64,000 bases of DNA from Thermoanaerobaculia bacterium (lineage in GTDB: Bacteria; Acidobacteriota; Thermoanaerobaculia; Multivoradales; UBA5704). Both the position numbers and the translations under genes were made by a program. The DNA lies in assembly GCA_044226625.1 (NCBI GenBank), contig JBGAGQ010000010.1:32001-96000 (forward strand). Direction: 5' to 3'. The notes below the pieces were generated by a model, which saw only the letters and a list, made by a program, of their open reading frames with translations, was not told where the DNA came from and ran no database searches. Below are positions 2,816-12,634 of the stretch, one piece after another (position 1 is the stretch's first letter; each line of letters begins with the position of its first letter).

Positions 2816-4225
2816 TTAGGCCGCTTCGACGCCGGGCGATCCGGCCCCGACCTTCACGACGACGAACGTCAGGTCGTCGCGCTGGGGGGCGCCAGCCTGG
2901 AACTCTGAGAAGTCGGCGAGCAGAGCGTCGCGCACTGTCTCGGCCGAGACTCCGCGCGGTATTCGCGCGAGCGAGGCGGCGAGCCGATCGAGGCCATAGG
3001 GCTCGCCGTGTCGGTCTTCCCCTTCGTAGAGGCCGTCGGAATGGAGGAGGAGCAGGTCGTCCTCCTCGATCGTCACTTCGCGGGTGCCGAAGCGCGGGTC
3101 GAGCTGGGTGCCGAGCGGCAGCGAAGGCAGGTCGACCTCGTTCACCCCGGCGCGGCTCGCGTGGAGAATCGGCGGGTGGCCGGCGTTGGCGACGGTCGCG
3201 GTCCGTCGGGTTGGGTCGAGCACGACGATCGCGAGCGTCACGAGCTTGCGGCGTCGCGCGGTCTGCTGGACCATCGCGTTGAGCTTGCCGAGCACTTCGA
3301 GCGGTCGATCGAGCTCCGTGGCGAGGAGCGTGAGGCAGCTGCGGACACCCGCGAGCAGCAGGCCGCTCGCCATGCCGTGACCGGCGACGTCGCCCACGAC
3401 GATCGCGAGCTTTCCCCCTTCGAGCGGGAAGTAATCGTAATAGTCGCCTCCGACCTCGGTCGCCGGACACGACAGGCTGCAGATGTCGAGCCATCCTTGC
3501 GGGGGGCAGCCTTCCGGGAGCATCGCGAGCTGGATCTCGCGCGCGTAGTCGAGCTCCTGCCGCATGCGCAGCTGTTCCCGCGTGCTCGTCTGCGCCGCCG
3601 TGAACAGGCCGAGGATCTCGCGCCTTCGTCGCCGCGAAGCGGCGAGACCGACGATGAGCGCGAAGACCTGATTGCTCGAGACCGCGAAGAAGGTGGGCGT
3701 CGAATCGTCGGGGCTGCCGCCGAACGGCATGCCGAACACCGCCGCGACGAGAAGGCCGAGCACGACCGAGCCGTGGATCAGCAGGCGCTCGACCGGCCGT
3801 AGGCGGAACGGAGCCACCAGATAGCCGACGATGATCGTCAACGGAATCAGCGCGTCCAGGCCGAGCGTCGCCCCGAGCGTCGAAAGGAGGGCGACTTCGA
3901 GCAGGACCACGACCGAGGCCCGCGGCTGGCGGGCGATCAGCGCTCGCGCCGGCTCGACGATCCGGTCGGCACCTTCGGTCGGGGAACGGCGCAACCGCCA
4001 ACGCCGCAAGGCGAAGAACCAGACCAGGGCGAACAGGACGCTGGGCGCGGTGATCGCGAGGCGCTTCGGATCGCCGGTCGCCGCCGCGATCGTGCCGCCG
4101 ATCGCGGTGAGTCCGTAGAGGACGACGAACCACCGCGCTCGACTCAGGTTCGACGCGTCGAACCGACGGGCGACCGCCTGTTCGCCGGACAGCTCGGTCA
4201 ACTCGTCCAGGGTGAAGGGCTCCAC
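2816..4225 (-). CDS. Membrane-bound PP2C-family (SpoIIE/RsbU-like) Ser/Thr phosphatase
   Basis: N-terminal TM helices, AREIQLAMLP, VGGDYYD, GDVAGHG, HSDGLYE, DDLT motifs. Confidence 0.92.
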   Translation of the reverse strand: MEPFTLDELTELSGEQAVARRFDASNLSRARWFVVLYGLTAIGGTIAAATGDPKRLAITAPSVLFALVWFFALRRWRLRRSPTEGADRIVEPARALIARQPRASVVVLLEVALLSTLGATLGLDALIPLTIIVGYLVAPFRLRPVERLLIHGSVVLGLLVAAVFGMPFGGSPDDSTPTFFAVSSNQVFALIVGLAASRRRRREILGLFTAAQTSTREQLRMRQELDYAREIQLAMLPEGCPPQGWLDICSLSCPATEVGGDYYDYFPLEGGKLAIVVGDVAGHGMASGLLLAGVRSCLTLLATELDRPLEVLGKLNAMVQQTARRRKLVTLAIVVLDPTRRTATVANAGHPPILHASRAGVNEVDLPSLPLGTQLDPRFGTREVTIEEDDLLLLHSDGLYEGEDRHGEPYGLDRLAASLARIPRGVSAETVRDALLADFSEFQAGAPQRDDLTFVVVKVGAGSPGVEAA

Positions 4226-4391
4226 GCGGCTATCTTACCCGTGGCCTCCTTCCTCTCGGCCTTTCGACCTCGAGCGACCCCTCGGCGGACCGAAACGGAT
4301 AGGTCCGTCGACCTCCGCGGAAGCGAGAGCCGTGCTCAACGGGTACACTCTCGCGGCTGATCCAAACGGTCTATTTGAGGAGAGGGTTCCA

Positions 4392-5396
4392 ATGCCGATT
4401 CGTGTCTTGCAGGTGGGGCTGGGGCCGATCGGGCTATCGATCGCTCGGCAGGTGGCGGGGCGGGCGGGGTTCGCGCTCGTGGGTGGGGTCGACCTGGACC
4501 CCGCGAAATCGAACCGCGATGTCGGAACCCTCGCGGGGCTCGGGCGCGAGATCGGGGCGATCGCTTCGGGCGACCTCGCCGAAGCGCTCGTGCGGATGCG
4601 GCCGGAGATCGCGGTCGTTTCGACCAGCTCGGCGCTCGAAAGGGTCGAGCCGACGATCGCGGCCTGCCTGGAGGCGGGGGTGGCCGTCGTCTCGACCACG
4701 GAGGAGCTGTCGTTTCCCTGGCGGGAGCGGCCGGAGCTCGCGCGGCGGATCGACGAGGCGGCGAAGCGTGCCGAGCGCGCGGTGCTTGGCACGGGCGTGA
4801 ACCCGGGTTTCGCGATGGACGCGCTGCCGCTCGCGCTCTCCGCCGTGTGCGAGCGGGTGGACGCCGTCACCGTCCGCCGGATCCAGGACGCCTCGAAGCG
4901 TCGCCTACCGTTCCAGAAGAAGATTGGCGCCGGGCTTTCCGTCGAGGAGTTCCACGCCAAGGTCGCGGCCGGCGGCGTGCGCCACGTCGGGCTCGCCGAA
5001 TCGATCGGCATGCTCGCGAGTGCGTTCGGTTGGAAGCTCGATTCCGTGACCGACGAGATCTGGCCGAAAATCGCCGAGGCGCCGGTCGTCTCGTCGGAGC
5101 TCTCGGTCGCCGCGGGCGATTGCAGCGGCGTGGTGCAGCTCGGTCTAGGGAAGGAAGGGGAGACCGTCCGCGTCCGCCTCGAATTCGAGGCTTATCTCGG
5201 GGCTCCGGAAAGCTACGACGAGGTCGAGATCGCAGGGTCTCCAGCGCTCACGTCGCGCGTCGTGGGTGGTATCCCCGGCGATCTGGCCACGGCCTCGATC
5301 GTGGTCAACGCGATCCCCCGCGTGCTCGCGGCGCCCGCCGGCCTGATCACCATGCGCGACCTGCCCCCGGCCCATTGGTGGCCGGGGGAGGTTTGA
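4392..5396 (+). CDS. Dihydrodipicolinate reductase-like / 2,4-diaminopentanoate dehydrogenase family oxidoreductase
   Basis: Rossmann GLGPIG, STTEEL, GTGVNPGFAMD, GDLATA motifs. ATG at 4392 follows GAGG. Confidence 0.8.
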   Translation: MPIRVLQVGLGPIGLSIARQVAGRAGFALVGGVDLDPAKSNRDVGTLAGLGREIGAIASGDLAEALVRMRPEIAVVSTSSALERVEPTIAACLEAGVAVVSTTEELSFPWRERPELARRIDEAAKRAERAVLGTGVNPGFAMDALPLALSAVCERVDAVTVRRIQDASKRRLPFQKKIGAGLSVEEFHAKVAAGGVRHVGLAESIGMLASAFGWKLDSVTDEIWPKIAEAPVVSSELSVAAGDCSGVVQLGLGKEGETVRVRLEFEAYLGAPESYDEVEIAGSPALTSRVVGGIPGDLATASIVVNAIPRVLAAPAGLITMRDLPPAHWWPGEV

Positions 5397-5398
5397 CG

Positions 5399-7360
5399 TC
5401 AGGCCACCACGGCCATCGGGCGTTCCGTCGCATCCTGAGCCGAGATGCGTGCCTCGACCTCTTCGCGATCCTCGGCTTGCGGACGAAGATCAAGATAGGT
5501 CACGAGGTCTCGGCTGGCGTCCTGGATCCGTCCGAGATCGGTTAAGAGGACCGCCCGATTCTGGTACAACTCGGCCTCGGTCGGCGCGATCTCGATCGCG
5601 CGATCGAGGTCTTCTAGGCTTTCCTGGAGCCGACCGAGCTCATAGAGGAGAACCGCTCGACCCGCGCGAGCCTGCCACAGGAGCGGATCGAGCTCGAGGG
5701 CCCGACTGTAATCGCGAATCGCATCTTCGATCTCGCCGAGAGTTTCTCTCGCCTGGGCACGGCCGAGCCACACTTTCTCCTGAATCGGCAGGAGGTCGAG
5801 GCTTCGAGAGTAGGCCTCCTTGGCCTCCGCCATTCGTCCGGTCAGCCTCAAACATTGACCGAGATTCGACCAGACCTCGTGGTAGGGCGGGCTCAATTCG
5901 ATCGCCTGGCGATAGTCGCGTTCCGCTTCCGCGTACCGCTCGAGCTTGAGGAAGACGTTACCGCGCTCGTTGTAGTACTCGGAATAGTTGGGGTCCATCC
6001 GCATCGCGGCTGAGAACCGGTCGATGGACTGTTCGTAGGCACCGAGCTGGGCGTACACCTGCGCCATGTTATAGAGGAGAACCGAGCGATGGAGTCGGTG
6101 CTGCTCGGGGCTCAAGTGTCGCTCGAGCAGCTCAAGGCCCTTCTGACAAAGCTCAAGCGCTTCGGCCTGCCGTCCTTGGAAGTTGCGGATCATCGCCAAG
6201 CCGTTGCGATTGAAAACGTATTGGAACCAATGCTCGTGCTCGGGAAGGCCCGATCGCTCCAGGTATTCGAGGCCTCGTTCCAGGAGTTGCTCACCCTGCA
6301 CCAAGTCGCGCTCCGGCATGTACCGGGCGAAGAGCATGGCCATCAGGTAGCACAGCCGGATCCTCATTGGGGCCTCTTGCGGATCACCGTGATCGGTGAG
6401 GACGTCCTCTTCAGCCAATCGATACGCGGCACCGACGTCGCCGGTCCCGAGGTAGGACATGAAGAGCTTGAAGAAAAGCCCCCAATGGATCGCCAGAGGA
6501 ATCTGAACTTGGCCGGAGCGCACTCGCGCTCGAATCGGTTCCCCATAGCGCAGGGCATCATGGTAGAGCCCAAGCGTGTTGTAGGTGTGGAGCGCGTGGT
6601 ACTTCCACATCAGGACCTTCTCTTGGTTCTCCGCGAGCTCCCACAGGCCCATCAGCTCGGCCAACCGCTCGGTGCTCGCGAGGGCATCCGGTGAAATCTC
6701 AGATTCGATCGCGAGAGCTCGACGAGACGCTTCGTCCTGAGCGAAAGCGACCCCTCGAGCGATCGACGGCAGAAGCGAGAACGGAAGCTCCTCGCGGGGG
6801 CATTCGAACCCATCGGCGTCAGGACGCTCCCCAGGAGAAGGAGCCAGGAGCACGGAGATCGCGGCTTGCGCTCCGCGGCGGCGCATCAGCTCGCGGAAGA
6901 ATCCACGAGCCAAGAACCCCCCGCGCTCGAAGTCGAGGCAGACCAGAAGGCAGGGCTCCCGCTTGAGTGCAATTCGAAACGCCGAGAGCAGATCGATCAG
7001 CCCATGTACGATTCGCAGCGCACGATCGGCTGGATAGTTCCGAACCCGTTCATCCGCGGATGCGATGTCGGTCAGATTCATCCTGCAGGGGCCGATCCGG
7101 TCTCGCGCTTCCGGAAGGACATGCACGAGCTCATAGCCATGCCGCTCGAGGAGGTGAGGTGTCCGCGAGCGCATCTCATCGAAAATCCCGCCGAAAAGAT
7201 CCCGCACTCCGGCCCACGGGCCTCCTTCGTCGAAATTACAGCGGAGAACCGTGACCTCCGGGCTCGGAACCAAGACGCCCGGCAGTTCTTCGAGGGAGAT
7301 GGCCGGTACGTCCGTTCGAGCGGTGGGTGTCAATAGCGTTCCCGGCCTGTACGTGATCAT
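5399..7360 (-). CDS. Tetratricopeptide-repeat protein with uncharacterised N-terminal domain
   Basis: Likely start MITYRPG at 7360 (ATGA overlap with the upstream gene). Multiple C-terminal TPRs, e.g. LYNMAQVYAQLG, YYNERGNVFLKLERYAEA. Confidence 0.85.
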   Translation of the reverse strand: MITYRPGTLLTPTARTDVPAISLEELPGVLVPSPEVTVLRCNFDEGGPWAGVRDLFGGIFDEMRSRTPHLLERHGYELVHVLPEARDRIGPCRMNLTDIASADERVRNYPADRALRIVHGLIDLLSAFRIALKREPCLLVCLDFERGGFLARGFFRELMRRRGAQAAISVLLAPSPGERPDADGFECPREELPFSLLPSIARGVAFAQDEASRRALAIESEISPDALASTERLAELMGLWELAENQEKVLMWKYHALHTYNTLGLYHDALRYGEPIRARVRSGQVQIPLAIHWGLFFKLFMSYLGTGDVGAAYRLAEEDVLTDHGDPQEAPMRIRLCYLMAMLFARYMPERDLVQGEQLLERGLEYLERSGLPEHEHWFQYVFNRNGLAMIRNFQGRQAEALELCQKGLELLERHLSPEQHRLHRSVLLYNMAQVYAQLGAYEQSIDRFSAAMRMDPNYSEYYNERGNVFLKLERYAEAERDYRQAIELSPPYHEVWSNLGQCLRLTGRMAEAKEAYSRSLDLLPIQEKVWLGRAQARETLGEIEDAIRDYSRALELDPLLWQARAGRAVLLYELGRLQESLEDLDRAIEIAPTEAELYQNRAVLLTDLGRIQDASRDLVTYLDLRPQAEDREEVEARISAQDATERPMAVVA

Positions 7361-8592
7361 GCGGTTCTCCCTTTGATCAGGCTTCTCACCCAGAGGCCGA
7401 GCCCGAGCGCTAGCGGCGCGAGATTGACAACGCCGACAAGTAACGAGTCCGCGACCCGATACGCACCGATTGAGCTTGCGGCCAGCGTCGCCCGCAAGGC
7501 GCCTGCGATGTAGCTGAAAAGGACCGGAAGGGTGACGAGAAACAAAGCCGCCAAGGCCAATCCCCGCCCGGCCAGCCAGAGGAAGGAAAAAGTGGAGATC
7601 ACCGTTCGCTCGCGGGCCGGAATATGGGACTGATCGATGAGTGGCTTCAAGCGCAAGAGGCGCCGAAATTGATTCCGGACGAAGTTCTCGGTATCGCTCA
7701 TTAGGTTCTTGCAGCCGAAGTAGTTCGTCAGCACGAAATAGAAGTCGGTGCGGACGAAGAAGAAGCACTGGAAGAGAATTCTGAATAGACAGAGAAACAG
7801 CGTCGCGCGAGCCACTTCGACGAGATTCGGTGAGAGGGCGATCTGTCCGAGCGAACCTGCGAAGAGCAATAGGACGATCAGGGAGCCAAAGAAGGCATCG
7901 AAAATAGGTCCCGCCAACATCGGTAGATAGCGCTGGTTCTTGGGTTGGGCCCAAAGCCCTGTCATGTCCGTCTCCGCCACGAGGACCCAGAGTCGATTGC
8001 TGATGCCGAACCGAGATTTGACTCCTACCGCTCGTGCCGCAAGAAGGTGGCAGAACTCGTGGGCGAACAATGAGGCGTAGGAGATCAGCACGACGATCAG
8101 CACTTTCGCGGTCTTGTCCTCGGCGAACAGCAAACTACTCTTGCCCGGTATGAGATCCGGATTACGCAAAAAGAGATACAAGGCCCAGCCAATCGTCCCC
8201 AAGTACAAGCTCAACGCGATCGGGCCCCAGAAGATTCGCGCCACCGACTGCGGAATCGTCGCGAAGTGATACCGGATCGGCTTTGGAGTTGCGGGGAGAA
8301 GAGTGGCGGCCGGAGCCGTTTCGGTCACGCCCGCGGCGGGGCGGACCAGCCCTTTCGATTCCAAGACGGTCAAGAGGTCTGCCAGCGCGGGGCGAAGACC
8401 ATGGCGCCGCTCGTACTCGGCCTCGACCTCGCCGACGCTTCGCCCTCCTGCCAAGCGATCGAGCAGCTCTACCGCCTCGACGGGGAGGGCGACGAACGTT
8501 CCGGTATCCGGACGTCCAATGACGACCTCGTCACCGTCCGGCTGTCGGGTAAAGGGATAGATCTGGACGAGGTCCGCCTGGAGGTATCCCAT
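7357..8592 (-). CDS. PqqD/RRE-like domain fused to M50 (site-2 protease-like) membrane zinc metalloprotease
   Basis: Start MGYLQAD at 8592. N-terminal beta-beta-beta-helical RRE-like segment (EVVIGRPDTGTFVALP..VELLDRL..LLTVLESKGLV), HEFCH in a TM segment, AGPxxD, RTDFY. Confidence 0.78.
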   Translation of the reverse strand: MGYLQADLVQIYPFTRQPDGDEVVIGRPDTGTFVALPVEAVELLDRLAGGRSVGEVEAEYERRHGLRPALADLLTVLESKGLVRPAAGVTETAPAATLLPATPKPIRYHFATIPQSVARIFWGPIALSLYLGTIGWALYLFLRNPDLIPGKSSLLFAEDKTAKVLIVVLISYASLFAHEFCHLLAARAVGVKSRFGISNRLWVLVAETDMTGLWAQPKNQRYLPMLAGPIFDAFFGSLIVLLLFAGSLGQIALSPNLVEVARATLFLCLFRILFQCFFFVRTDFYFVLTNYFGCKNLMSDTENFVRNQFRRLLRLKPLIDQSHIPARERTVISTFSFLWLAGRGLALAALFLVTLPVLFSYIAGALRATLAASSIGAYRVADSLLVGVVNLAPLALGLGLWVRSLIKGRTA

Positions 8593-8614
8593 CCTCTTCC
8601 CCTTGGCTTGCTGG

Positions 8615-9541
8615 CTACTTCTCGACCACGGATTGTGCGACGAGGAGCATCTCGACGTCTCGAGCGAGATCGGCCGCGTTGAAGCGATCCGACTCCGGAA
8701 CTGCCTTGGGTCCTCGACTGGAAACGAGCCGTACGAGATCCGAGGGCGGAGGAGCTTCGCTCCAGTGCTTGCCGCGCGAGAAAACAAAGCAAGGGAATGT
8801 GCCGGCATCCTTACCGATTTCGTTCAGGTTCGAGCGGAAGAGGTCTCCGATCCTGCGATCGAGGGTCCAAAACTGAAGTACGCGACCGTCTCGGGCCAGA
8901 TTGGCTGCCGGCTGGATCGCCCCTTCGATCGCGGAGTCGAAAGCCTGGCTTGAAGTTTCCCAGAGAACGTAAAGGCGGAGATCCGGATCGGCGTTTCGAT
9001 CGAGAACGTAACGCTCGATCAGACTCAGCATGACCTTGGAGGCGAAAGACGAGGGAGAGAGGATCACAAGCAATCGCCGCCGATCGGTGTCTGAGTTGAA
9101 GGCGCTCTTCAGCTCTTCGCCTCCTGGCGACAACTTACGAAGCGTCGGTGCATTGTCCTTACGAGCGCCGAGGACCTCCCGCTCCAGCGTGAACACGAAG
9201 GAGCTCTTACCCTCTAACATCTCGCCCGCGATCTTGTTCCCATCCGAGGAGACCTGGCCCCGAAACGACGAGGTGACACCGCTCTCATCACGCACGCTGA
9301 ACGATACCTCGGAGCCCTTCATCGCAAAATTCTCAATCGCATACCACGCCGGACCGCTGATCGGAAAATTGAGACGCCCGGTGGTCTCTCCCTGTTCGGT
9401 GATTCGAAGCTCGACCGAGACGTCCGCCTCGAGCACGGCAGGCGACATGACCAGCTCACCACGCCAGGAACCTTCCAAGCACTTGCCTTGAGAGGCAGTC
9501 ACCATGAAGAGCATAGATAGAATCCGTAACTTGATCTTCAT
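8615..9541 (-). CDS. Secreted hypothetical protein, beta-rich N-domain plus thioredoxin-like C-domain without CxxC
   Basis: Signal-peptide-like N-terminus, GSWRG beta domain, C-terminal RRLLVILSPSSFAS..LRLYVLW. Co-oriented with its neighbours. Confidence 0.65.
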   Translation of the reverse strand: MKIKLRILSMLFMVTASQGKCLEGSWRGELVMSPAVLEADVSVELRITEQGETTGRLNFPISGPAWYAIENFAMKGSEVSFSVRDESGVTSSFRGQVSSDGNKIAGEMLEGKSSFVFTLEREVLGARKDNAPTLRKLSPGGEELKSAFNSDTDRRRLLVILSPSSFASKVMLSLIERYVLDRNADPDLRLYVLWETSSQAFDSAIEGAIQPAANLARDGRVLQFWTLDRRIGDLFRSNLNEIGKDAGTFPCFVFSRGKHWSEAPPPSDLVRLVSSRGPKAVPESDRFNAADLARDVEMLLVAQSVVEK

Positions 9542-9582
9542 CCCGACCTCCGTTCACCCAAGGGCAAGTGCCGTACTGAGAG

Positions 9583-9606
9583 GCCGCCGGACCGTGGTCC
9601 GGCGGT
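9583..9606 (-). terminator. Hairpin downstream of the small peptide gene
   Basis: GCCGCCGGACC-GT-GGTCCGGCGGT inverted repeat, about 20 nt after the stop codon. Confidence 0.55.
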
Positions 9607-9624
9607 GATCGACGTTTGGTCCTG

Positions 9625-9771
9625 CTAGCTCGCGTCCGGAGAGCAGCAGGTCAACCAGTTGCAGGAGAGGGTTTGATTGGTCCAGTCAAGGTTCTGGCAG
9701 CAACAGTCGCAGCCGTAGAAGGCCGCCGTGGTCTTGAGGGTCTCGACTTCGCGAACGACGAATCGCTTCAT
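9625..9771 (-). CDS. 48-aa Cys-rich putative RiPP precursor peptide (absent from the ORF track)
   Basis: Manual translation: MKRFVVREVETLKTTAAFYGCDCCCQNLDWTNQTLSCNWLTCCSPDAS*. Very strong SD (AAGGAGGTGA) just before the ATG. Confidence 0.85.
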   Translation of the reverse strand: MKRFVVREVETLKTTAAFYGCDCCCQNLDWTNQTLSCNWLTCCSPDAS

Positions 9772-9981
9772 GTTCTGTCACCTCCTTTCCTTAAAGGATT
9801 TCAAAGTGCGCAGCTCCGCCGGCTGGCGCGATCTAACGATTACGCGCCTTGGCGTTTCGCGCGGGTAAGACGCGGATACTTGTCTGCTGCTCTTGAGCCT
9901 GGAACGTACAGTAAGGGAGGTCAGATGCTGTTGGGTTGACTCAAGCTCTTGACGAAATCTCTTGCTATCTCTTCTTGGGGA

Positions 9982-10425
9982 TCAGCCGTTGGGGTTGGCG
10001 ATTCGCCCGCGGTGCTCCGAGGGAGCAACTCCAAAGCGACGATGAAAGGCCCGGCAAAACGTTTCTTGATGCTCATATCCAACGACGAGTGCAATCAGGT
10101 AGATGTCGATATCGCAACGTTCGAGGAGATGCCTTGCCGCCTCGAGTCGCAATTGCTCGATGTACTCTCGGATGCCGAGTCCTACGAATGTGCGAAATCG
10201 GGTCGAAATATTGTTGTTGCGGAGGCGACAGTCTCGCTTGACCGCGTTGACGTTCAAGGAGGGCTCGAATGGGCGACCGTGAATCAGGTCGAGAACCGCG
10301 GCGACTTCGCGGGGGAAGCTCTGCGAGAGGATCTGGTTCTGGGCGAACGCAAGGCGTAGCTCGCTCTCGATCCGCTCATAGTCGATGCCGAAGCGAGCTT
10401 TTCGTGCCGCACCGTCGAGCCGCAT
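9982..10425 (-). CDS. Stand-alone AraC-family HTH transcriptional regulator
   Basis: IREYIEQLRLEAARHLL..IALVVGYEHQETFCRAFHRRFGVAPSEHR AraC signature. Confidence 0.88.
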   Translation of the reverse strand: MRLDGAARKARFGIDYERIESELRLAFAQNQILSQSFPREVAAVLDLIHGRPFEPSLNVNAVKRDCRLRNNNISTRFRTFVGLGIREYIEQLRLEAARHLLERCDIDIYLIALVVGYEHQETFCRAFHRRFGVAPSEHRGRIANPNG

Positions 10426-10546: not shown

Positions 10547-12634
10547 TCAATCGACGGGTCTGCCGAATAGCGTCTCCCGTTCGAGCAACGGCCGGGTGAT
10601 CGCGTCCGCCCGGTCCCAAGCGCGGCGGACGTGCTCGCGGAGATCGGGCTCACGCAGAAGAGCGGAAACCTCGGCTCTTTTGAACAGCGCCATCGGTAGA
10701 TCGGGGTGGCGCGCGGGAAGACGGGCGATCGCGCGATCGAGGGCGTCGCGTGCGTCGGCGAAACGCCGGGCATCCATGGAGCAGACCCCTATCGCGAGAT
10801 CCTCGGCGAATCGATCCCCCAGGATTTCGCGAGAGCGCTCGAACGCCAGGAGCGCACCGGCGGTGTCGCCCATGGCCATCTTGAGCGTACCCAGACGCGA
10901 AAGCTCCGCGCCCGGCGCCCCTTTCTTTTCGATCACCCGCTCGAGCAGGCGAGCGGCTTCCGGAACGTTTCCTTCCCGCTCACGGATCGCGGCGAGCCCT
11001 TCGAGCGCGGCGAGGCGGTCGGGATCGGCCGCGAGCACGCTCTCGAGCAGCGGCGCCGCCTCTGTGTCATGGCCGAAGCGGAGGAGGTGGAGTCCCTCGT
11101 AGGCGCGCAGGTCGAGAGAATCGGGCCGTAGGCGCCGGGCCGCGGCGAACTGCTCGGCGGCCTTCGATTCCTTTCCGAGGATCGACCAGGCGACCGCGAG
11201 GCGAAGGCGCGCGGTCTGATTGTTCGGGTCTTTTGCCGCCACGCGGGTGAGCGGCTCGATCGCCCCGGCGTAATCCTCGCGGACGAAGCGCGCGGAGCCG
11301 AGGTCGAGGTCCCGAAAGAGATCGGTCCGGTCTTTGGGGCTCGGCGCGTCGGGCCGAACCTCCGCGGGTGCCTCGCTTCCGGCGACGTAGCCGAGGCTCG
11401 CGAGGCGCTTCCGATCCTCATCGGAGAGGTTCGCGTCGGAGGCCGACGGCGAGGTGGGAAGCTTCGCGAGATAGGCCGACAACGCGGCGGCCGCTTCGCG
11501 ATTCGGCTCGGTCCGCCCCGCGAGATTCGTCGACTCACGCGGATCGGCTGCGAGGTCGTAGATCTCTGTCGCGCCCGAGCGGATCAGCTTGAGCTTGCCC
11601 TCGACCGCCATCGCCTGGGGCTGCCAGCCGTAGTCGAGGAACGGCATCATCGCCTCGCCAAGCACGATCTCCGGTCGAGGCGCGGCAGGCGCGGCGAGGC
11701 CCGCGTCCGTCCGCCCAAGCCCGGCGAAGGCGAGGATCGTGTCGAAGACTCTTCGGGTGGAGACCGGCTCGTCGCGCGCGCCCGGTGCAAGGCCCTCGCT
11801 CGCCGCGATCACTAGCGGCACGCGCATCGTCCCCTGGTAGAGCAAGTGGCCATGGAACGCCTCGCCGTGCTCGCCGCGCCCTTCGCCATGATCGCCGACG
11901 ACGATCGCGCGCCAGCCGGTCGGTGCCGCGCTCTTCTCGAGCTCGGTGAGCAAACGGCCGAGCTGCTCGTCCATCGCGGCGATCTCACCCAGGTAGGGAT
12001 CCTTGGCGTAGCGCGAGCGGTACGGCTCGGGCGGCTCGTACGGATCGTGCGGGTCGTAATAGTGGACCCAGAGAAAGACCGGCGAGCCGGCGGCCGGCGC
12101 GTTCGACCGAAGGAAGGCGAGCGCGCGATCCGTGGTGGCCGCGGCGGGACGCTCGGCCTTTCCGGCGCCGAAATCGTCGTCGTAGGTCTCGAAGCCCGCG
12201 CCGAGCCCGAAAGCACGCGCGAGCGGGAATCCGGAGACGAACGCCGCCGTGCGATAGCCAGCCTTCGCGAGCCGCGCGGCGAGCGGCTCGCGATCGGCAG
12301 GAACGGCGAGCGAGCGTCCGTTTTCGCGCACGCCGTGCTCGTTCGGATAGAGCCCGGAGAGCATCGAGCCGTGGGACGGGAAGGTCTGCGGCGCCGTCGC
12401 GTAGGCCTGGAAGAAACGGAGCCCTCGCGCGGCGAGCGCGTCGAGGTTCGGCGTCGTGGGAGCCTTCGATTCGTAGCCCACGGCGTCGGCGCGCGTGGTG
12501 TCGAGCGTCACGAGCAGGATCGACGGTGCCGGCTTCCCGGCGCCTTCTGCGCCCGCGCCGGATTCCTCGCCCTTGGAGCAGCCGAGCGGCACCCAGACAA
12601 CGACCGGAAGAAGAATGGCGGCGAGGAGTTTCAT
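10547..12634 (-). CDS. Sulfatase-like (alkaline phosphatase superfamily) hydrolase with C-terminal TPRs, probable lipoprotein
   Basis: Start MKLLAAILL..LGC at 12634. LVTLDTTRAD, TFPSH, HYYDPHDPY, GDHGE motifs. Confidence 0.88.
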   Translation of the reverse strand: MKLLAAILLPVVVWVPLGCSKGEESGAGAEGAGKPAPSILLVTLDTTRADAVGYESKAPTTPNLDALAARGLRFFQAYATAPQTFPSHGSMLSGLYPNEHGVRENGRSLAVPADREPLAARLAKAGYRTAAFVSGFPLARAFGLGAGFETYDDDFGAGKAERPAAATTDRALAFLRSNAPAAGSPVFLWVHYYDPHDPYEPPEPYRSRYAKDPYLGEIAAMDEQLGRLLTELEKSAAPTGWRAIVVGDHGEGRGEHGEAFHGHLLYQGTMRVPLVIAASEGLAPGARDEPVSTRRVFDTILAFAGLGRTDAGLAAPAAPRPEIVLGEAMMPFLDYGWQPQAMAVEGKLKLIRSGATEIYDLAADPRESTNLAGRTEPNREAAAALSAYLAKLPTSPSASDANLSDEDRKRLASLGYVAGSEAPAEVRPDAPSPKDRTDLFRDLDLGSARFVREDYAGAIEPLTRVAAKDPNNQTARLRLAVAWSILGKESKAAEQFAAARRLRPDSLDLRAYEGLHLLRFGHDTEAAPLLESVLAADPDRLAALEGLAAIREREGNVPEAARLLERVIEKKGAPGAELSRLGTLKMAMGDTAGALLAFERSREILGDRFAEDLAIGVCSMDARRFADARDALDRAIARLPARHPDLPMALFKRAEVSALLREPDLREHVRRAWDRADAITRPLLERETLFGRPVD

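Follow-up and report, generated by a model that had tools for sequence, protein, structure and literature searches.

A widespread RiPP-like gene cassette with a tetratricopeptide repeat protein as candidate modifying enzyme

The closest described systems to the one treated here are found among the RiPPs (ribosomally synthesised and post-translationally modified peptides). In the daptides (MpaP/DapP; Ren et al., bioRxiv 10.1101/2023.03.08.531785), a RiPP recognition element (RRE) is fused N-terminally to an intramembrane site-2 protease and the precursors are short, often present in several copies. In the epipeptides (EpeP/YydH; PMC10885120), an M50 protease is credited with cleavage and export of the RiPP, and the glycocins sublancin and pallidocin (PMC6405829) show an odd cysteine count, with two disulfides and one modified residue among five. 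Our locus is located at positions 5,399 to 10,425 of a window of 64,000 nucleotides (the whole stretch of DNA that was analysed) from a Thermoanaerobaculia bacterium (GenBank assembly GCA_044226625.1, contig JBGAGQ010000010.1, positions 32,001 to 96,000 of the forward strand). It encodes a cysteine-rich precursor, an RRE-M50 protease and a tetratricopeptide repeat (TPR) protein, and belongs to a RiPP-like system that is real, widespread and so far undescribed, in which the TPR protein is specifically proposed as a new modifying enzyme. The logic of leader, RRE and protease is of a known kind; the novelty lies in the proposed modifying protein. No literature description of the system was found, subscription journals and supplements being outside the scope of the search; it may be listed in supplementary tables of RRE-Finder.

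Daptide precursors have an ELExMEAP leader motif and an invariant C-terminal threonine, neither of which is present in the precursors here. The dehydrogenase, aminotransferase and methyltransferase genes of the daptides are neither in the cassette nor recurring around it; a TPR partner and a core with tyrosine and cysteine are found instead. The radical S-adenosylmethionine (SAM) epimerase of the epipeptides is likewise missing from the cassette and the recurring neighbours. The same is true of any glycosyltransferase domain, and no peptidase-containing ATP-binding cassette (ABC) exporter belongs to the system, whereas the glycocins use such an exporter and a dedicated GT2 glycosyltransferase. 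Compared with the glycocins, our system has short cores, an invariant tyrosine and one to seven cysteines; it shares the odd parity, and its disulfides are presumed. Two further enzymes serve as analogies only, general searches showing no sequence or fold relation to either: galactose oxidase, in which an aryl-sulphur bond between tyrosine and cysteine is formed with metal and O2 (PMC4072685), albeit within its own chain, and the fungal DUF3328 RiPP enzymes, with two HxxHC motifs, in which helix-borne HxxH pairs are copper ligands (PMC12435403).

STAND NTPases such as MalT resemble the TPR protein in having a STAND-like N-terminal domain followed by TPRs; however, our protein has no Walker A motif (139 of 139 sequences), no helical or winged-helix STAND domains and no helix-turn-helix (HTH) output. 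RRNPP receptors are TPR receptors with an HTH or Rap output domain, and neither is present in the TPR protein according to Pfam and the predicted model. Agr-type thiolactone peptides form a ring from a cysteine to a downstream residue and are accompanied by AgrB and AgrC/A genes. This does not describe our system, in which no such genes recur and three of the 40 single-cysteine precursors have the cysteine as their last residue. Ammosamide- and biphenomycin-like TPR proteins come from different gene sets, and are set apart from ours by gene content.

The conserved unit and its precursor peptides

Loci were collected by an alignment search with the TPR protein, which gave 118 loci in genomes and 158 in metagenomes; the best 80 of each were taken. 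Among these 160 loci, the protease is matched in 122, a secreted protein in 31 and an AraC-type regulator in eight. An iterated leader profile finds 136 precursor open reading frames in 116 loci, every one on the strand of the cassette. Where at least 2 kb of upstream sequence is available (100 loci), the profile gives protease and precursor in 91, the precursor only in eight and neither in one. On inspection this last locus also contains a precursor, with a decayed leader, so that a precursor is present in 100 of 100. Precursor, RRE-M50 protease and TPR protein make up the conserved three-gene unit, and several loci consist of these genes alone. The preliminary description, made from the letters of the window, had proposed a five-gene system and had expected homologues to have neighbouring peptides with a similar leader; the latter is what the 100 loci contain, whereas the secreted protein and the AraC regulator turn out to be merely accessory. 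It had also noted the absence of a recognisable tailoring enzyme. This holds for the wider set: no radical SAM, YcaO or LanM enzyme recurs, nor does any other modifying enzyme in the neighbour clusters of the 160 loci or in Pfam scans of 88 of the 172 listed neighbours. The neighbours that do recur are MacB/FtsX permeases (their cluster extends to 79 loci, in some of them non-adjacent), thioredoxin-like proteins and ABC exporters, the last of these directly downstream in three protease-less loci.

By the titles of their records, carriers belong to the Acidobacteriota, Myxococcota, Cyanobacteriota, Chloroflexota, Actinomycetota and Gemmatimonadota and include a Symbiobacteriaceae genome; Nostoc, Tolypothrix and Corallococcus are cultured carriers. 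Sampled prevalence, with the seed genome counted in, is 4 of 401 in Actinomycetota, 1 of 251 in Cyanobacteriota, 12 of 169 in the class of a Ktedonobacteraceae genome and 15 of 251 in that of Corallococcus. No relative of the TPR protein was found on the viral contigs searched, and a plasmid search with P0208 gave no match. Three to six tandem precursor genes are present at L057, L070, L071, L077 (Nostoc), L191 and L049, with cores that are near-identical in Nostoc and diverse in L049 and L191; in the leader-profile search the copies reach five in Nostoc. The TPR gene of L175 (positions 6316–6346, genome G025) is broken over two frames, as a pseudogene or by a sequencing error.

The precursors have the consensus MKKFxIREVETLKTTAAxYxxxC, with a leader that is conserved and a core that is variable across loci. 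No NCBIfam family matches the precursor of the window, and at most four of 103 precursor members match any model. The window precursor has cysteines at positions 21, 23, 24, 25, 37, 42 and 43, Cys23 being at Tyr+4. Among 111 distinct precursors (one of which, from L080, begins at a contig edge and is possibly mis-assembled), four have no cysteine, 40 have one, three have two, 40 have three, one has four, 14 have five and nine have seven. The number is thus odd in 103 of 111, and in 63 of the 67 with at least two cysteines. When the multi-cysteine cores are clustered at 40% identity, 34 of 36 clusters are odd; the p value for parity, 2e-8, is inflated by kinship. The same pattern was sought in other residues and seen in none of those tested. 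Cysteine makes up 20% of core residues and is located at Tyr+3 to +5 in 104 of the 111 precursors, including 39 of the 40 single-cysteine peptides. Loci fetched later added 25 further tyrosine-bearing precursors, all 25 odd (22 with one cysteine and three with three), a count that omits duplicates, two chance open reading frames caught by the pattern and precursors without the Tyr-Cys pair. Seven precursors have a cysteine just ahead of the tyrosine and are odd only when it is counted, which suggests that the cut lies before that residue.

Since exported bacterial proteins prefer even numbers of cysteines (PMC7678975), and since one of the five cysteines of the glycocins is blocked by glycosylation (PMC6405829), the odd count suggests disulfides plus one reserved cysteine, kept outside the disulfide pool. 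A simply disulfide-rich or metal-binding peptide, as had been proposed at the outset, does not account for the odd number or for the 40 of 111 precursors with a single cysteine.

The protease matches Peptidase_M50 (PF02163) with 29.2 bits against a cut-off of 27.2. It has hydrophobic segments, and residues H178, E179 and H182 of the HExxH motif, together with D283, are invariant in 68 protease sequences. An RRE had been suspected at its amino-terminus. Within the first 100 residues, PqqD is matched by 33 of the 68 members at E≤0.1 (the window member with E 0.03, below the gathering score), and a profile of the domain has the lasso RRE TbiB1 as its best match in the PDB (E 0.0091); both support an RRE-like behaviour. 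The daptide protease model NF041824 is matched by 20 of the 68 homologues (best E 6.5e-14) and NF058609 (YydH/LiaK), weakly, by eight; the window protease matches neither at E 0.01. At protease-less loci, which are partly kin, the leader is decayed in both halves (nine leaders against 75; p 2e-4 and 2e-7), with tyrosine and cysteine kept. Because both halves decay where the protease gene is missing, the pattern fits a leader that serves the RRE along its whole length; separate boxes for RRE and TPR protein are unsupported.

The TPR protein and its candidate site

The predicted model of the TPR protein is a confident single unit (predicted local distance difference test score 93.2, predicted template modelling score 0.91). 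Its N-terminal domain, previously left unassigned, can be assigned to a STAND/AAA-like fold. The best match is MalT (8bob; Z 8.2, root mean square deviation 3.8 with 148 aligned residues), a middling score, followed by ORC/Cdc6 and archaeal AAA+ ATPases, and AAA_16 is matched by 20 of 83 members. Foldseek finds nothing for this domain at E≤0.001, and the Walker A motif GxxxxGK[ST] is present in 0 of 139 sequences within the first 70 aligned residues. The domain therefore appears to be a pseudo-NTPase and the protein, having no Walker A motif, is probably not an ATPase. The N-domain as such had been considered as the possible new enzyme; in place of this, the candidate site is split between a loop of the N-domain and a helix of the TPR part. 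For the whole protein, Foldseek and VIA give generic TPRs only and NCBIfam nothing beyond generic TPR models. No HTH, Rap output or DNA-binding domain appears in the Pfam scan or the model, and a profile comparison of two N-domains showed no relation. In complex predictions of the TPR protein with the precursor, scores of 0.10 and 0.22 were obtained, against a mark of 0.32.

A profile search gives 427 representatives of the TPR protein, including a clade of 700–800 residues, the aligned members of which are 23–29% identical to the window protein. The loci of this clade have the same gene order, with precursors ending in PLY-x(2-5)-C and containing one cysteine. In the ESM Atlas, residues 1–210 of P0001 retrieve unnamed Bacillota clusters (144–203 residues, up to 1032 members) with scores of 0.86–0.90, as well as AAA_16 clusters; the former are possibly stand-alone relatives of the pseudo-NTPase domain.

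The candidate site is defined by residues that are lost together with the Tyr-Cys pair of the precursor. The comparison covers 43 TPR positions that are at least 97% conserved across 131 loci with Tyr-Cys precursors. T97, R107, H424 and S426 are all intact in 128 of these loci, and at least one of the four is changed in 7 of 9 lineages without the pair, versus 3 of the 131 others. Among the nine pair-less lineages, H424 is changed in six, T97 in five, and H421 and S426 in four each. A permutation for the maximum (H424) gives P 0.005 over the 43 sites and 0.012 over the 33 that are not glycine, alanine or proline. In L054 from Nostoc, where the peptide is without tyrosine and cysteine, T97A, R107L, H424Q and S426A are the only changes among the 43 positions. 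An unrelated myxobacterial clade has T97V, R107Q, H424Q and S426A among 11 changes, and a locus of the Ktedonobacteria class (L194) has R107I and H424Q among three. On a quick IQ-TREE tree, built from 53 of the 176 aligned TPR proteins, seven changes of the site are required, at least five of them forced by branches with support of at least 95. Where two or more of T97, R107, H421, H424, S426 and Y459 are changed, the tyrosine is absent or displaced in 6 of 6 lineages; site loss is accompanied by phenylalanine, tryptophan or histidine in its place, or by a tyrosine at another position.

Cys405 of the TPR protein was considered as a pairing partner of the spare cysteine and rejected, as the distant clade lacks it and as it persists where the peptide cysteine is lost. 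A clade of TPR proteins without candidate site and protease (L212, L214, L215 and L216, from the myxobacterial genomes G954, G1111, G937 and G1046) is accompanied in four genomes by a short precursor containing tryptophan and free of cysteine, and is possibly a non-catalytic offshoot with a function of its own. On a Kitasatospora plasmid (NZ_CP108409.1, L179:3244–6965), a methyltransferase-like open reading frame replaces the protease ahead of a diverged TPR homologue, next to a similar short leader peptide; this could be a variant form in which the peptide is modified differently. A Streptomyces plasmid (NZ_CP109482.1, L161:6505–10148) has the three-gene layout amid many transposases, with a precursor lacking tyrosine and cysteine and a decayed TPR site.

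Possible mechanism and alternative explanations

We consider the odds somewhat better than even (roughly 0.55) that the TPR protein covalently modifies one cysteine, by whichever chemistry, because the core has no other constant partner, because a specific polar site of the protein is linked to the Tyr-Cys pair, and because one cysteine appears to be spared from disulfides. The cassette would then be a minimal RiPP pathway with the TPR protein as modifying enzyme. The TPR groove would bind the precursor around the invariant tyrosine, and a site formed by T97 and R107 of the N-domain loop and H421, H424 and S426 of the TPR helix would covalently consume one cysteine at Tyr+3 to +5. The RRE would bind the leader and the M50 domain would remove it at or before residue −1, as daptide and epipeptide precedents suggest. 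The product would be exported and the remaining, even number of cysteines would pair as disulfides, with the thioredoxin-like protein and AraC as optional helpers. As product we tentatively propose a Tyr-Cys cross-linked ring, possibly formed at a metal that the HxxH pair would bind. The ring is favoured because the loss or displacement of the tyrosine along with the site suggests that the phenol takes part. The next and more doubtful guess would be that a group is transferred to the thiol, the tyrosine being the anchor. In its fullest form, which we put forward no less tentatively than the ring, the proposal is a new RiPP class, spread across at least six bacterial phyla. Its sole modifying enzyme would be a fusion of a TPR solenoid and a dead STAND NTPase domain, which together would build a histidine-based metal site for cross-linking tyrosine to cysteine in trans. 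The resulting aryl-thioether rings would be small, with up to three disulfides as further braces.

Several observations weigh against a modifying role. L068/L112 and L104 retain the site beside precursors that have the tyrosine and no cysteine (with serine or threonine nearby), and L203 and L213 have TPR genes with an intact site where no precursor was found. Conversely, beside precursors with cysteine, H424Y occurs in L025/L127 and T97M in L075, and H421 is replaced by tyrosine in L034, L209 and L078 (and in L063, where no precursor was called). Four precursors contain two or four cysteines. L161, L179 and L200 are generally diverged, with 10–14 of the 43 sites changed, so that the sharp cases of co-loss are only L054, L194, L050 and the myxobacterial clade. 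To our knowledge, there is no precedent for a cytoplasmic TPR metallo-oxidase. Finally, a binding pocket for tyrosine and thiol would predict the same co-loss as a catalytic site.

The conserved site would be only such a pocket if the system served signalling: the protease would free the peptide unmodified, and the TPR protein would act as a cytoplasmic receptor for it, RRNPP- or STAND-like. Groove-facing asparagines (386, 431, 464 and 499) are conserved, which is also the case in peptide-binding TPRs; MalT is the closest match of the N-domain, and PlcR and Rap are among the fold matches, as generic TPRs only (Z 16.9 and 16.2). Moreover, systems outlast the loss of the site, as in the L212 clade, and AraC, sigma-factor-like and kinase genes are near some loci. 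We nevertheless regard signalling as unlikely: the TPR protein has neither a DNA-binding nor any other output domain, regulators do not recur widely (AraC in 8 of 160 loci), and the cores vary freely next to a nearly invariant TPR groove, which is the reverse of a specific receptor. A receptor would also leave the odd number of cysteines unexplained.

The parity bears in the same way on metal handling, in which the spare cysteine and the TPR histidine pair would hold a metal ion in common, a metal-binding peptide being loaded or chaperoned by the TPR protein with no covalent change. The co-variation of the HxxH pair with the cysteine and the high cysteine content of the cores agree with such a role. 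However, metal-binding cysteine clusters give no reason for odd parity across one, three, five and seven cysteines, 40 of 111 precursors have just one, and among neighbouring genes neither metal transporters nor metal regulators recur; we hold this to be rather improbable. Odd parity is explained without new chemistry if the spare cysteine is engaged in an inter-chain disulfide, within a peptide homodimer or to another protein (for example the secreted thioredoxin-like one), the TPR protein then being a chaperone with no catalytic activity. Thioredoxin-like neighbours do accompany precursors of three to seven cysteines, in 26 of 26 such loci, yet two later loci combine the secreted protein with single-cysteine precursors. 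An inter-chain disulfide does not explain the joint loss of cytoplasmic TPR residues, tyrosine and cysteine, and the distribution of Cys405 also speaks against it, leaving it a slim chance.

RiPP classes are defined by chemistry, and mining based on enzymes would miss a system without a recognisable one. If the TPR protein is the catalyst, a TPR scaffold would have turned enzyme, with a core tolerating almost any sequence around Tyr-x(2-4)-Cys, and peptides could be cyclised with a compact, leader-guided tool. A direct test is possible, since the residues to mutate and the mass change can be named and cultured carriers exist.

The locus in the window and its surroundings

Five co-oriented genes in a lower-GC island had been described for this part of the window. 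The five open reading frames are all real and at the positions given (Table 1), and the GC content of the cassette is 0.600 compared with 0.677 for the genome, only 1.1% of 2451 5-kb windows being as low. The TPR open reading frame overlaps the stop of the protease with its start (ATGA). The precursor, a single-copy gene in the source genome, has the Shine-Dalgarno sequence and downstream hairpin attributed to it, the former 6 nt ahead of its ATG and the latter with a perfect 9-bp stem. The hairpin has z −2.5 over the 70 nt after the precursor stop and just −0.54 when scored over the 89-nt stretch 9542–9630. Stems of at least 9 bp follow 18 of 124 distinct precursor genes, versus 0.08% of shuffles; the hairpin of the cassette probably stabilises or truncates the precursor mRNA. 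In one RNA run (share 0.06), short contigs of 192 and 151 bp are on the TPR and AraC genes and none is on the precursor.

Table 1. Features of the cassette in the window
Feature	Position	Strand	Remarks
Precursor peptide, 48 aa, 7 Cys	9625..9771	-	leader residues 1-18, Tyr19, then core
Shine-Dalgarno AGGAGGTGA of the precursor	9778..9786	-	sequence
9-bp GC hairpin 3' of the precursor stop, without U tail	9584..9605	-	
RRE-M50 intramembrane zinc protease, 411 aa from ATG at 8592	7357..8592	-	
Protease N-terminal RRE (PqqD-like) domain, about residues 1-90	8323..8592	-	
Pseudo-STAND/TPR protein, 653 aa, candidate maturase	5399..7360	-	without predicted membrane segment
N-domain of the TPR protein (STAND/AAA-like fold, Walker A missing), about residues 1-200	6761..7360	-	
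N-domain loop L96-T97...E104..R107, part of candidate site	7040..7075	-	
H421-x-x-H424-x-S426, start of TPR helix, part of candidate site	6083..6100	-	
Accessory 308-aa protein; N-terminus resembling a signal peptide (as judged from sequence), then a beta-rich and a thioredoxin-like domain, the latter without CxxC	8615..9541	-	
Accessory stand-alone AraC-type HTH regulator, 147 aa	9982..10425	-	HTH_18; 8/160 loci

The same-genus genomes G002 and G004 have both flanking genes separated by about 0.5 kb, with another small gene and no cassette; in the three other genomes searched, the flanking genes are on separate contigs. The TPR gene is present in 5 of 60 relatives. Because of this distribution and the low GC content, the cassette is regarded as a patchy and probably acquired unit. 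The flanks are a 2,4-diaminopentanoate dehydrogenase-like gene (4212–5396) and a sulfatase-TPR fusion (10547–12634).

The accessory 308-aa protein had been taken for a secreted protein with a redox fold. The thioredoxin-like half stands; it has no CxxC motif, SPSSFAS being in its place. The motif is missing also from the closest homologues and present in others. Homologues are usually downstream of the TPR gene and, in the survey of loci with at least 2 kb upstream, occur with precursors of three to seven cysteines in 22 of 22 cases. A restriction to multi-cysteine cores is broken by L173 and L176, both single-cysteine loci; all are related Acidobacteria. In a minority of Acidobacteria, an AraC gene lies immediately upstream of the precursor. 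Further off in the window, positions 423–1922 encode a Type I restriction-modification HsdM (N6_Mtase), which is followed on the opposite strand by an apparently split DUF4351/transposase-invertase-like gene (2031–2465 and about 2378–2769, region 423–2797).

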